In this document: positions 19,270-31,334 of the stretch, one piece after another | Layout: each line of letters opens with the position of its first letter | How positions within the stretch are numbered: position 1 is the first letter of the stretch | DNA from: Escherichia coli | GTDB taxonomy: Bacteria; Pseudomonadota; Gammaproteobacteria; Enterobacterales; Enterobacteriaceae | Reading direction: 5' to 3' (one strand) | Assembly (NCBI RefSeq): GCF_003334815.1 | Contig: NZ_QOWO01000013.1 | Length of the DNA stretch: 64,000 nucleotides | Program-made: the position numbers and the translations under genes | The notes under the pieces: generated by a model | What the model was told of the DNA's origin: nothing | Databases searched by the model: none | Seen by the model: the letters and a program-made list of their open reading frames with translations, nothing else

Positions 19270-21034
<1,765 letters not shown>

Positions 21035-21379
21035 AGTAAATAGCTGACTTATGGATGTGCTGGGGATTCTATGTATTTAGCTGTGGCTTTACCATTACTT
21101 TTCCCGTTTTTGACTTAAATAGCTTCAGTTTGGTCTGATCTGCCGCTACATCTTCTTTTTTTTGTATTTTTATGCGATTCATTGAAACTCGGCCCCATTT
21201 TCAAATCTACATAGGCCGTACTGACATTATCGAAATGCTATTTTTTATCTATTTGATTTTTATGATTAAAGTATATTTTGTGTATAAAAATCATTCGGGT
21301 CGGATTGCTGCGAAAGAAATGATACACTAGCACGTCAAAGTAAGTGCGTTATCAGTATTCAGGTAGCTGTTGAGCCTGG

Positions 21380-21391
21380 GGCGGTAGCGTG
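21380..21391 (+). promoter_or_regulatory. ops element (GGCGGTAGCGTG) in the JUMPstart-like leader of the waaQ operon
   Basis: Exact 12-nt ops consensus on the coding-sense strand, 48 nt upstream of the waaQ GTG. Confidence 0.8.
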
Positions 21392-21438
21392 CTTTATTCT
21401 GCTTAACTTAACCAGACAATCACACAAAAGAGTCGCTA

Positions 21439-22509
21439 GTGGAAAAGCCATTTCGAAAAATCCTGGTCATAAAGATGCGATATCATGGGGATATGTTATT
21501 AACTACTCCTGTCATCAGTACGCTCAAGCAGAATTATCCTGATGCAAAAATCGATATGCTGCTTTATCAGGACACCATCCCTATTTTGTCTGAAAACCCG
21601 GAAATTAATGCGCTCTATGGGATAAGCAATAAAGGTGCGGGAACTTTCGATAAAATTAAAAATGTGCTTTCGTTGATAAAAACTCTGCGTGCGAATAATT
21701 ATGACCTGGTCATTAATCTTACGGATCAGTGGATGGTGGCGCTGCTGGTACGTTGTTTACCTGCACGGATGAAAATATCGCAACTTTATGGTCATCGGCA
21801 GCATGGTATTTGGAAAAAAAGCTTCACACACTTAGCGCCAATACACGGTACACATATTGTTGAGCGTAATTTATCGGTCCTTGAGCCATTAGGTATTACC
21901 GATTTCTACACCGACACAACAATGAGTTACGCCGAAGATTGCTGGAAGAAGATGCGCCGGGAATTAGATGCCCTGGGCGTAAAAGATCATTATGTTGTCA
22001 TCCAACCGACAGCGCGTCAGATATTTAAGTGTTGGGATAACGATAAATTTTCTAAGGTTATCGATGCGCTGCAACAGCGAGGCTATCAGGTTGTGCTAAC
22101 CTGTGGGCCCTCGGCAGATGATCTCGCTTGTGTAGATGAGATTGCACGAGGTTGCGAAACAAAACCCATTACTGGCCTTGCAGGTAAAACACGTTTTCCT
22201 GAACTGGGTGCATTAATTGATCATGCAGTGCTTTTTATTGGTGTGGATTCTGCGCCGGGACATATTGCAGCGGCAGTGAAAACGCCAGTCATTAGTCTAT
22301 TTGGTGCAACGGATCACGTATTCTGGCGTCCCTGGACCGAGAATATTATTCAATTCTGGGCGGGGAATTATCAGAAAATGCCGACCCGGCATGAACTTGA
22401 CCGCAACAAAAAATATCTTTCTGTTATCCCAGCGGAGGATGTGATCGCCGCTACGGAAAAGCTGTTGCCAGAAGATGCCCCTTCAGCTGACAGGAATGCA
22501 CAATTATGA
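21439..22509 (+). CDS. waaQ: LPS heptosyltransferase III WaaQ (GT9)
   Basis: ORF track 356 aa from GTG 21439; first in-frame ATG is 21475 (344 aa), see findings. Confidence 0.88.
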   Translation: MEKPFRKILVIKMRYHGDMLLTTPVISTLKQNYPDAKIDMLLYQDTIPILSENPEINALYGISNKGAGTFDKIKNVLSLIKTLRANNYDLVINLTDQWMVALLVRCLPARMKISQLYGHRQHGIWKKSFTHLAPIHGTHIVERNLSVLEPLGITDFYTDTTMSYAEDCWKKMRRELDALGVKDHYVVIQPTARQIFKCWDNDKFSKVIDALQQRGYQVVLTCGPSADDLACVDEIARGCETKPITGLAGKTRFPELGALIDHAVLFIGVDSAPGHIAAAVKTPVISLFGATDHVFWRPWTENIIQFWAGNYQKMPTRHELDRNKKYLSVIPAEDVIAATEKLLPEDAPSADRNAQL

Positions 22510-23630
22510 TCGTGGCGTTTTGTTTATATAAATATTTTCCATTTGGTGGGCTTCAACGTGACTTTATGCGCATTGCATCAACAGTTGCCGCACGGGGCCA
22601 CCATGTTCGGGTATATACACAGTCGTGGGAAGGCGATTGCCCGAAAGCATTTGAGCTTATTCAGGTGCCAGTTAAGTCCCATACCAACCATGGACGCAAT
22701 GCAGAATATTATGCCTGGGTACAAAATCATCTCAAAGAGCATCCCGCAGATCGCGTTGTTGGGTTTAATAAGATGCCTGGCCTGGATGTTTATTTTGCCG
22801 CTGATGTTTGTTACGCCGAGAAAGTTGCGCAAGAAAAAGGTTTTTTATATCGTTTAACATCACGATATCGCCATTATGCCGCATTTGAGCGAGCGACTTT
22901 CGAGCAGGGTAAATCGACGAAACTTATGATGCTGACCGATAAGCAAATCGCCGATTTCCAGAAGCATTATCAAACTGAACCTGAACGTTTTCAAATTCTT
23001 CCTCCCGGTATTTATCCGGACAGAAAATACAGTGAGCAAATCCCAAACAGCCGTGAAATTTATCGCCAGAAAAATGGCATAAAAGAGCAACAAAACTTAT
23101 TACTGCAGGTTGGATCAGATTTTGGCCGTAAAGGTGTAGATCGCTCAATTGAAGCTTTGGCATCGTTACCGGAATCATTACGTCACAATACGCTTTTATT
23201 TGTTGTTGGTCAGGATAAGCCGCGAAAATTTGAAGCGCTGGCAGAAAAACTCGGCGTGCGGAGCAATGTGCATTTCTTCTCCGGTCGCAATGATGTGTCA
23301 GAATTAATGGCAGCCGCTGATTTATTACTGCATCCCGCTTATCAGGAAGCCGCGGGTATCGTTCTTCTAGAAGCGATCACTGCTGGGTTACCTGTTTTAA
23401 CAACAGCGGTATGTGGGTACGCGCATTATATTGCGGATGCCAATTGTGGAACGGTCATCGCTGAACCTTTCTCTCAGGAACAATTAAATGAAGTTTTACG
23501 TAAAGCGTTAACTCAGTCGCCATTGCGAATGGCCTGGGCGGAGAATGCTCGCCATTATGCCGATACTCAGGATTTGTATAGCTTGCCAGAAAAAGCCGCG
23601 GATATCATTACAGGTGGTTTAGATGGTTGA
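22506..23630 (+). CDS. waaG: LPS glucosyltransferase I WaaG (GT4)
   Basis: ORF track 374 aa; start overlaps waaQ stop (ATGA). Confidence 0.94.
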
Positions 23631-25435: not shown

Positions 25436-26515
25436 ATGAAAATAGCGTTTATCGGCGAAGCTGTTTCTGGATTTGGCGGCATGGAAACTGTCATCCGTGA
25501 TGTTATTACTACCTTCAGGCAACAACATATCCAAAGTGAAATGTTTTTCTTTTGTCGTAATGACAAAATGGATAAGGGATGGCTGGAAGGTATTAAATAC
25601 TCATGTTCATTTTCCAATATTCGTTTAGGTTTTTTGCGTCGGGCGAAACATATTCATGCTCTAAGTAAATGGCTTCAGGAGTACCAACCAGATATCGTTA
25701 TTTGTATTGATGTGATCTCCTGCCTGTTTGCCGCAAAAGCACGTAAAAAATCAGGAATTGATATGCCAGTATTTTCATGGCCACATTTTTCTTTAGATCA
25801 CAAAAAACATGCTGAATATATCACCTGTGCCGACTATCATTTAGCAATCAGCTCTGGCATTAAACAGCAAATGATTAATCGAGGTGTAGCAGAATCGACG
25901 ATAAATGTTATTTTTAATCCCGTCGAAACTAAAGACTCAGTCATTCCCGCGCCCGAGGAAGGTGAAACGGCAACGTTTATTTATGTTGGGCGTATGAAAT
26001 TTGAAGGCCAGAAAAGAGTTAAAGACCTGCTTGATGGCTTATCACAAGCGAAAGGTAACTGGAAACTCCATGTATTGGGTGATGGCTCCGATTTCGAAAA
26101 ATGCCAGGCTTATGGTAGAGAATTAAATATTGATGATCGAATTGTCTGGTATGGTTGGCAACAATATCCCTGGGAATTGGTCCAGCAAGATATTGAAAAA
26201 GTGAGTGCGTTATTGCTCACGTCATCTTTTGAAGGTTTCCCAATGACCCTACTTGAAGCCTTGTCGTGGGGGATTCCTTGTATCAGTGCCGATTGTGTCT
26301 CCGGGCCTGCTGACATTATTCAACCTGATGTCAATGGCCATCTGTATCAACCGGGAGATATTGCTGGTTTTGTAACTCTTCTAAATAAATATATAGCAGG
26401 TGAAATTCATATCGAACATGAAAAAATTCCTGCGTCGATCGATGAATTTTACCAATCGAAGTATTACGATAGATTACATAAGGTAATTATTTCTGCTATT
26501 TCCCGGAGGAAATAA
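25436..26515 (+). CDS. waaB: LPS alpha-1,6-galactosyltransferase WaaB (GT4)
   Basis: ORF track 25406..26515 (GTG); conserved start MKIAFIGEAVSGFGGMETV at ATG 25436 (359 aa). Confidence 0.88.
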   Translation: MKIAFIGEAVSGFGGMETVIRDVITTFRQQHIQSEMFFFCRNDKMDKGWLEGIKYSCSFSNIRLGFLRRAKHIHALSKWLQEYQPDIVICIDVISCLFAAKARKKSGIDMPVFSWPHFSLDHKKHAEYITCADYHLAISSGIKQQMINRGVAESTINVIFNPVETKDSVIPAPEEGETATFIYVGRMKFEGQKRVKDLLDGLSQAKGNWKLHVLGDGSDFEKCQAYGRELNIDDRIVWYGWQQYPWELVQQDIEKVSALLLTSSFEGFPMTLLEALSWGIPCISADCVSGPADIIQPDVNGHLYQPGDIAGFVTLLNKYIAGEIHIEHEKIPASIDEFYQSKYYDRLHKVIISAISRRK

Positions 26516-30260: not shown

Positions 30261-31334
30261 ATGCGCTTAGGAACTTTTCACAAAAAGAAAAGATTTTATA
30301 TAAACAAAATCAAGATTAATTTCCTTTCTTTTTTATTTCGTAATAAAATAAATAATCAAATTACAGATCCAGCACAAGTTAAATCATGCCTTATTATTCA
30401 TGATAATAATAAACTTGGTGATCTAATTGTATTAAGTTCGATTTATCGTGAACTTTATAGTAAAGGGGTTAAAATAACTCTTCTCACAAATAGAAAGGGT
30501 GGGGAATTTCTCTCTAATAATAAAAATATATTTGAGTTCTGTATTAAAGAATCAACCGGTTTTCTTGAAATGCTTACTCTATGTAAGCATCTGCGGGATT
30601 TACAGTTCGATATTGTATTAGACCCCTTTGAAACTATGCCCTCATTTAAGCATAGCTTAATATTATCAAGTTTAAAAGATTCTTACATTCTGGGTTTTGA
30701 TCATTGGTATAAGCGTTACTATTCATTTTACCATCCCCACGATGAATGTTTAAAAGAACATATGAGTACACGAGCAATAGAAATACTGAAGCATATTTAT
30801 GGTGAGGGTAAATTTTCCACCAACTACGACTTGCATTTACCAGTAGATGTTGAAGATAAAATAAAAGAATTTATTGGAGATACAAGAATAGTCATTATTA
30901 ATCCATTAGGTGCAAAAAAAATATGCCGTCTTACGTTTGAGCAAATAAAAGTTATATATCAAGAAGTGAAAACACACTTTGAAAATTATCGGATTATATT
31001 TACCGGGTTACCGCAAGATTTATTGACAATACCAATACTTGAAATCGAAACACTACCATTTGATGAGTTTATTTATACCGTTGCGTTGACCAAGTATAGT
31101 GATTTTGTCATTTCTGTTGATACAGCTCTTGTTCATATCGCTGCGGCTTATCATAAACCAACGCTTGCATTTTACCCTAATTCACGTACTCCGGAATATC
31201 CCTCGCATTTAATTTGGTCCCCGAATCATCATAAATCTATACAAATAGTATCCCCAACATATACGGTAAAAGATATCGATACTGAAACTTTAACTAATTC
31301 AGTAAAGAGATTAAGTTGTATAGATAAGAAGTGA
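30261..31334 (+). CDS. waaU: LPS heptosyltransferase IV WaaU (RfaK; GT9)
   Basis: ORF track 357 aa; last gene of the plus-strand waaQ operon. Confidence 0.85.
   Translation: MRLGTFHKKKRFYINKIKINFLSFLFRNKINNQITDPAQVKSCLIIHDNNKLGDLIVLSSIYRELYSKGVKITLLTNRKGGEFLSNNKNIFEFCIKESTGFLEMLTLCKHLRDLQFDIVLDPFETMPSFKHSLILSSLKDSYILGFDHWYKRYYSFYHPHDECLKEHMSTRAIEILKHIYGEGKFSTNYDLHLPVDVEDKIKEFIGDTRIVIINPLGAKKICRLTFEQIKVIYQEVKTHFENYRIIFTGLPQDLLTIPILEIETLPFDEFIYTVALTKYSDFVISVDTALVHIAAAYHKPTLAFYPNSRTPEYPSHLIWSPNHHKSIQIVSPTYTVKDIDTETLTNSVKRLSCIDKK

Follow-up and report, generated by a model that had tools for sequence, protein, structure and literature searches.

The window analyzed here is a stretch of 64,000 nucleotides of Escherichia coli DNA (contig NZ_QOWO01000013.1, assembly GCF_003334815.1) that carries the waa (rfa) LPS-core region of a K-12-type E. 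coli. Its plus strand corresponds to the minus strand of MG1655, and MG1655 coordinates (MG) were converted into window coordinates with x = 3829573 - MG. Over 20 kb (MG1655 3795000-3815000), the two sequences are 99.96% identical and differ by seven SNPs and one 1-bp gap, none of which falls inside 21412-21477, the interval holding the candidate starts of waaQ. Two differences lie nearby, a 1-bp deletion relative to MG1655 at 21156 in the waaA-waaQ intergenic region and an A at 21396 (T in MG1655), inside the annotated RirA and just after the JUMPstart element; the T is also found in the other E. coli core types that we aligned. The features described below are on the plus strand unless stated otherwise.

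The 5' part of the waaQ leader corresponds to the small RNA rirA (21335..21407), annotated in NC_000913.3 as ncRNA b4760 at 3808166..3808238. Within it, positions 21353 to 21391 match the JUMPstart element (Rfam RF01707; 55.2 bits for a gathering score of 35, E = 6.4e-10), which contains the ops site GGCGGTAGCGTG, the loading site of RfaH, and JUMPstart/ops does not vary among the four E. coli core types that were aligned. A scan of 20900-21700 for promoters and terminators found none. Downstream of the JUMPstart element, the waaQ frame is closed by an in-frame TAA (21409..21411), as read directly from the sequence, and is open from 21412. The codons from 21412 to 21438 (CCA GAC AAT CAC ACA AAA GAG TCG CTA) include no ATG, GTG, or TTG, and the only canonical in-frame start before the ATG at 21475..21477 is a GTG at 21439..21441. 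This GTG is separated by 6 nt from AAAGAG (21427..21432), a weak Shine-Dalgarno (SD)-like motif with an invariant core, AAGAG, at 21428-21432.

From the GTG, the mechanical open reading frame runs from 21439 to 22509 and encodes 356 aa with the N terminus MEKPFRKILVIKMRYHGD. We assign it as the full waaQ (rfaQ) coding sequence for LPS core heptosyltransferase III, on the basis of the open reading frame, of its match to NCBIfam NF007742, and of an extent identical to that of WP_001350560.1. The ATG at 21475 is the start annotated in NC_000913.3, and the 12 codons that separate the two candidates (21439..21474, encoding MEKPFRKILVIK) are not included in the 344-aa annotation. At its 3' end, waaQ shares an ATGA (22506..22509) with waaG (22506..23630), the stop of the first overlapping the start of the second, and waaG in turn overlaps waaP by 8 nt (23623-23630); these overlaps suggest translational coupling along the operon.

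The first-pass annotation, made from the sequence alone, had described the region 21412-21477 exactly as we find it, with the TAA, the AAAGAG motif, the GTG, and the ATG all correctly placed, and had proposed that waaQ starts at the GTG and not at the first ATG. We estimated that ∼63% of random 21-codon stretches would hold an ATG, GTG, or TTG and that ∼37% would be free of stops. Finding an NTG upstream of the ATG in a frame free of stops is thus within chance and, taken alone, not significant. What supports the GTG start is therefore its conservation, the homology of the encoded residues, and the published mapping of initiation, rather than the occurrence of the codon as such.

Translation starts of E. 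coli have been mapped genome-wide by tetracycline-arrested ribosome profiling (TetRP) (Nakahigashi et al. 2016, DNA Res 23:193, PMC4909307). In Table S2 of that study (row 85), rfaQ is given a new GTG start with a shift of -36 and is assigned to the class "1. new site." The TetRP depth in the three samples was 65.4, 79.8, and 75.8 at the GTG versus 0, 5.1, and 0 at the annotated ATG, with a mean ratio of about 103. The new start is located at 3806157 (U00096.2), 36 nt upstream of the old ATG, which is position 21439 of the window, and the listed protein begins with MEKPFRKILVIK. The first-pass annotation had named initiation mapped at ATG 21475 as an observation that would speak against it; TetRP, which belongs to the ribosome-profiling data that it had suggested as a check, instead puts the rfaQ signal at the GTG at -36. 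The section of the same paper on reporter assays describes rfaQ-lacZ fusions that contained both candidate codons, each mutated in turn, and reports, as a qualitative result, that β-galactosidase activity fell more upon loss of the new start than upon loss of the ATG. These fusions were driven by the lacUV5 promoter and did not carry the ops element.

Our analysis makes a claim identical to the reannotation of rfaQ by Nakahigashi et al. 2016, with the same gene, the same GTG codon, and the same predicted N terminus, and adds only comparative, profile, and structural arguments to it. No N-terminal peptide of rfaQ is recorded in PMC4909307 (the N'-peptide column is blank), and the supplements of TRAINSPOTTER 2026, Fijalkowski 2024, and Giess 2017 (PMC13245402, PMC11005335, and PMC5576327, respectively) contain no waaQ/rfaQ rows; waaQ is also absent from the main text of the Ribo-RET study (Meydan 2019). 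In INRI-seq, the sole waaQ site listed is an in vitro ATT at +129. The synthetic RNAs used there had a 5' UTR of 30 nt and hence lacked the GTG at -36, so this data set is uninformative on the GTG. Elsewhere in the operon, rfaB/waaB (window about 25436-26515) shows TetRP signals at two candidate starts, in partial disagreement with a 2014 reannotation (PMC4909307).

We then compared waaQ across species. A scan with one genome per species yielded 43 orthologous loci, to which we added the window and four E. coli records; 46 loci were suitable for analysis. A canonical in-frame start was present 14 to 18 codons before the His/Gln of the (H/Q)GD motif in all 46 of them, and in 31 it was a GTG at exactly the position equivalent to 21439 (-15). 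These 31 loci, in which the GTG is invariant, include members of Escherichia, Citrobacter, Salmonella, Kosakonia, Cedecea, Siccibacter, and Shimwellia. Over the 36 nt that precede the GTG, no block other than AAGAG at -11 to -7 was invariant in these loci (30 distinct sequences compared).

The fate of the annotated start codon differed between closer and more distant relatives. Met13, the residue encoded by the ATG at 21475, was kept in all 31 of the closer Enterobacteriaceae loci and was replaced by Leu in 14 more distant orthologues (from Pectobacterium, Brenneria, Serratia, Symbiopectobacterium, Superficieibacter, and UBA5654). In 12 of the 14, the Leu codon is CTC or CTG, which are not start codons, and these orthologues therefore cannot start at the Met13 position. 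The Leu13 orthologues start instead at a GTG or ATG located 14 to 18 codons upstream of the motif and in most cases preceded by a strong AAGGA. The Pectobacteriaceae and Serratia orthologues (loci L030, L036-L042, L046, and L047 of the comparison, at about 1480-1485) have a GTG start three codons further upstream, and the AAGGA preceding it has a pairing energy of about -5.6 to -6.3 kcal/mol, versus the weak AAGAG of Enterobacteriaceae. Judging from these sequences, waaQ seems to have had a non-ATG start for a long time.

Substitution patterns in the 30 distinct sequences were evaluated by codon position. The mean minor-allele fractions at positions 1, 2, and 3 were 0.11, 0.10, and 0.24 for codons 2 to 12 and 0.06, 0.02, and 0.36 for codons 13 to 24, versus a flat 0.34, 0.36, and 0.33 for the 36 nt upstream of the GTG. 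In addition, 18 of the 30 sequences contained an in-frame stop at most 12 codons upstream of the GTG. The 12-codon extension shows a coding-type pattern of substitution and the sequence upstream of the GTG does not; together with the in-frame stops, this indicates that the coding region starts with the GTG and does not extend further upstream. Compared with K-12, the 73% identity class of E. coli has three synonymous changes in the extension as well as three conservative ones (E2D, K7R, and V10L) and carries a 2-nt indel just upstream of AAGAG. The extension is thus conserved as protein, whereas Met13 lacks conservation as a start, which is the pattern of a misannotated start.

The full-length protein was matched to family profiles. 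The long form of WaaQ scored 682.1 bits against NF007742 (the NCBIfam RfaQ profile; cutoff, 467) and 503.3 bits against TIGR02201 (cutoff, 170.2), and positions 1 to 350 of the 352 positions of NF007742 match residues 1 to 350 of the long form. In contrast, the 344-aa form has an incomplete N terminus and enters NF007742 at position 13 and TIGR02201 at position 7. For the HepIII, HepII, and HepI profiles (TIGR02201, TIGR02195, and TIGR02193, respectively), position 1 corresponds to WaaQ residue 7. Residues 7 to 12 of WaaQ (KILVIK) align with residues 2 to 7 of WaaF (KILVIG), residues 2 to 7 of WaaC (RVLIVK), and residues 10 to 15 of 3TOV (RIVVTF). The first-pass annotation had matched KILVIK to the conserved N-terminal strand of WaaC and WaaF, whose N termini it quoted exactly (MRVLIVKTSSMGD and MKILVIGPSWVGD, respectively); the alignment of GT9 N termini bears this out and places KILVIK on β1.

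To locate these residues in the fold, an AlphaFold2 model of WaaQ was built on an alignment of 43 sequences that included WaaC and WaaF (mean pLDDT, 93.7; pTM, 0.91). The first strand of the model spans residues 7 to 11 (21457-21471), which would be strand β1 of the N-terminal Rossmann-like domain, and is followed by the HGD loop and a helix at residues 16 to 20. The top PDB matches in Foldseek were 3TOV (TM score, 0.83), 1PSW, which is WaaF (0.74), and 2GT1, which is WaaC (0.74), and WaaQ is accordingly predicted to have a GT-B two-domain fold. His16, Gly17, and Asp18 are encoded at 21484..21492 and form the GD motif after β1. In the 43-sequence alignment, G17, D18, K197, D270, and H275 are invariant. 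WaaQ has β1, the GD loop that bears the catalytic Asp, the conserved Lys, and the D(T/S)(G/A)xxH signature. The key catalytic residue of WaaC is D13, and our assignment of residue roles is taken from the same study (PMC3559599). By alignment, Asp18 of WaaQ corresponds to catalytic Asp13 of WaaC.

The solved GT9 structures, namely, WaaC (2GT1, 2H1H, and 6DFE), WaaF (1PSW), and a Veillonella GT9 protein (3TOV), are only 19 to 25% identical to WaaQ but share the GT-B fold with it. WaaC, WaaF, and 3TOV also have in common with WaaQ a short N-terminal β1, an xxxGD loop, the catalytic Asp, the Lys, and D(T/S)(G/A)xxH. WaaQ differs from the solved GT9 structures by six extra residues, MEKPFR, before β1, and also in its reaction, as it adds the branching third heptose, whereas WaaC and WaaF add the first or second. 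Reviews state that WaaQ transfers L,D-heptose to heptose II of the LPS inner core.

The first strand of GT-B enzymes occupies a central place in the N-terminal Rossmann-like sheet. Initiation at Met13 would therefore remove a core strand from the protein and leave the catalytic Asp six residues away from a free N terminus. The 344-aa form of NC_000913.3 lacks β1, and we infer that it would be misfolded, unstable, or inactive. WaaU, the putative heptosyltransferase IV, has an annotated N terminus (window 30261-30350; MRLGTFHKKKRFYINKIKINFLSF) that lacks the early β-strand and GD motif of WaaC, WaaF, and WaaQ; a similar check of where WaaU starts, or of how its N terminus is built, may be worthwhile.

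Signals predicted from the mRNA sequence were less helpful. The duplexes formed with the 3' end of 16S rRNA have nearly equal energies, -2.4 kcal/mol for the GTG versus -2.2 kcal/mol for the ATG. SD strength was therefore rejected as a discriminator between the two starts, and only the conservation of AAGAG was retained. The first-pass annotation had pointed to AAAGAG as a signal preceding the GTG; the motif is indeed present and its AAGAG core is invariant, but its pairing is weak and no better than that before the ATG. In folding predictions, the GTG is mostly paired (unpaired probability, 0.06 to 0.10) and the ATG is more open. This runs against the experimental result, and accessibility was dropped as an uninformative predictor. 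Sequence-based predictors do not explain the choice of start in waaQ.

TetRP, the lacZ mutants, conservation, family profiles, and the structure model nevertheless agree with the start proposed by the first-pass annotation. We consider it very likely that waaQ is translated mainly from GTG 21439 to give a 356-residue heptosyltransferase III and that MEKPFRKILVIK holds β1 (KILVI). Published profiling and reporter mutants show where initiation takes place, and the conservation of the extension and its homology to β1 are shown as well. In the 356-aa enzyme, β1 leads straight into the His-Gly-Asp loop with the catalytic aspartate. The ATG at 21475 is an internal codon, Met13, picked historically as the first ATG, and RfaH may contribute to initiation at the weak waaQ start site.

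The opposite reading, according to which the reference annotation is right and the upstream GTG and its open frame are a coincidental part of the 5' UTR, has on its side the 344 aa of the curated NC_000913.3 record and derived entries (AAC76656.1 and others), as well as the ∼63% frequency with which an in-frame NTG occurs by chance in such a short open stretch. It is contradicted by the TetRP data and lacZ mutants (PMC4909307), by the coding-type conservation of the 12 extension codons, by orthologues lacking any start codon at the Met13 position, and by profile and structure alignments that need residues 7 to 12, and we give it almost no credence. A less extreme alternative is dual initiation, in which GTG 21439 would give the full enzyme and low or condition-dependent initiation at ATG 21475 would add a 344-aa proteoform without β1, maybe unstable, inactive, or regulatory. 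The small TetRP signal that one of the three samples shows at the ATG (5.1 versus 79.8 at the GTG; PMC4909307), the retention of Met13 in 31 enterobacterial loci, the greater predicted accessibility of the ATG, and the many genes with two start sites described by Nakahigashi et al. (PMC4909307) are all compatible with it. However, the ATG signal was zero in the two other samples, rfaQ was classed as a new site and not in the class with both sites (PMC4909307), and the replacement of Met13 by Leu with a nonstart codon in 12 orthologues means that an internal start is not conserved. The Met/Leu alternation also fits a hydrophobic structural position. On balance, we find dual initiation very improbable and retain the GTG as the principal start of waaQ.

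The GTG start of waaQ is already known, as it was published in 2016 and is used by PGAP and NCBIfam. PGAP takes the upstream GTG in four of four E. coli genomes sampled, which cover three sequence classes (one K-12-like genome, one that is 92% identical, and two of the 73% identity class), with proteins of 356 or 352 aa. Among representatives of homologue clusters in which the HGD motif was found (118 out of 120, all at least 64% identical), 98 start at the GTG-equivalent position, 19 start further upstream, and 1 starts at the Met13 position. Both lengths of WaaQ are present in protein databases, the 344-aa form as AAC76656.1 and its copies and the 356-aa form as, for example, the PGAP protein WP_001350560.1. 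The waaQ of the window has the same 356-aa form as PGAP/RefSeq WP_001350560.1 and NCBIfam NF007742, whereas the curated MG1655 record keeps 344 aa (waaQ b3632; NP_418089.1; 3807064..3808098, equivalent to window 21475..22509). The first-pass annotation had anticipated that a 344-aa annotation would be N-terminally truncated, and b3632 is indeed of that length and without β1. The curated K-12 reference and the entries derived from it are still truncated.

The value of the correction is practical and not conceptual; it is an ordinary annotation fix that implies no new biology. The truncated K-12 reference carries over into ORF clone sets, expression constructs, and 344-aa structural models, and proteins expressed from the ATG may be inactive or poorly folded. 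Residue numbering shifts as well, the catalytic Asp of WaaQ being residue 18 and not residue 6. The 5' UTR of waaQ becomes 36 nt shorter than usually drawn, which bears on work on RirA, ops, and RfaH and on the analysis of variants described as "upstream of the start codon." In the same region, coaD (minus strand, window 19270-19917) has a mechanical open reading frame of 215 aa from the first ATG, which overlaps the end of waaA; the annotated CoaD has 159 aa and starts with MQKRAIYPG, and the 215-aa frame is not a finding but an artifact of applying the first-start rule.

With the GTG start, the JUMPstart/ops element precedes the start codon by 48 nt, and the distance from the 3' end of RirA to the start codon is 31 nt, versus 67 nt with the ATG start. 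The RirA small RNA and the role of RfaH at ops have been described, and RfaH is reported to couple transcription to translation via ribosomal protein S10 (PMC6358824). An upstream JUMPstart/ops element and a weak non-ATG start fit an RfaH-dependent operon, and one may speculate that RfaH-aided ribosome recruitment could offset the weak SD at the waaQ GTG. A stronger version would see a functional design in the GTG and weak AAGAG, which are kept across Enterobacteriaceae close to ops, with waaQ initiation dependent on RfaH, translation of waaQ and, via the stop/start overlaps, of the operon gated by RfaH and titrated by RirA, and Met13 perhaps serving as a fallback start for an inactive proteoform. 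We hold this to be improbable, and strict RfaH dependence of waaQ initiation is disfavored because the lacZ fusions worked from lacUV5 without ops.

A T>C SNP at MG1655 3808241, described as "upstream of waaQ," has been linked to tobramycin MIC and to expression of the waa operon (2025 preprint 10.1101/2025.06.10.658842). This position corresponds to 21332 in the window, 3 nt before the 5' end of RirA, and the variant base is carried by all three non-K-12 sequences that we aligned. The SNP may simply be a lineage marker of the core type.
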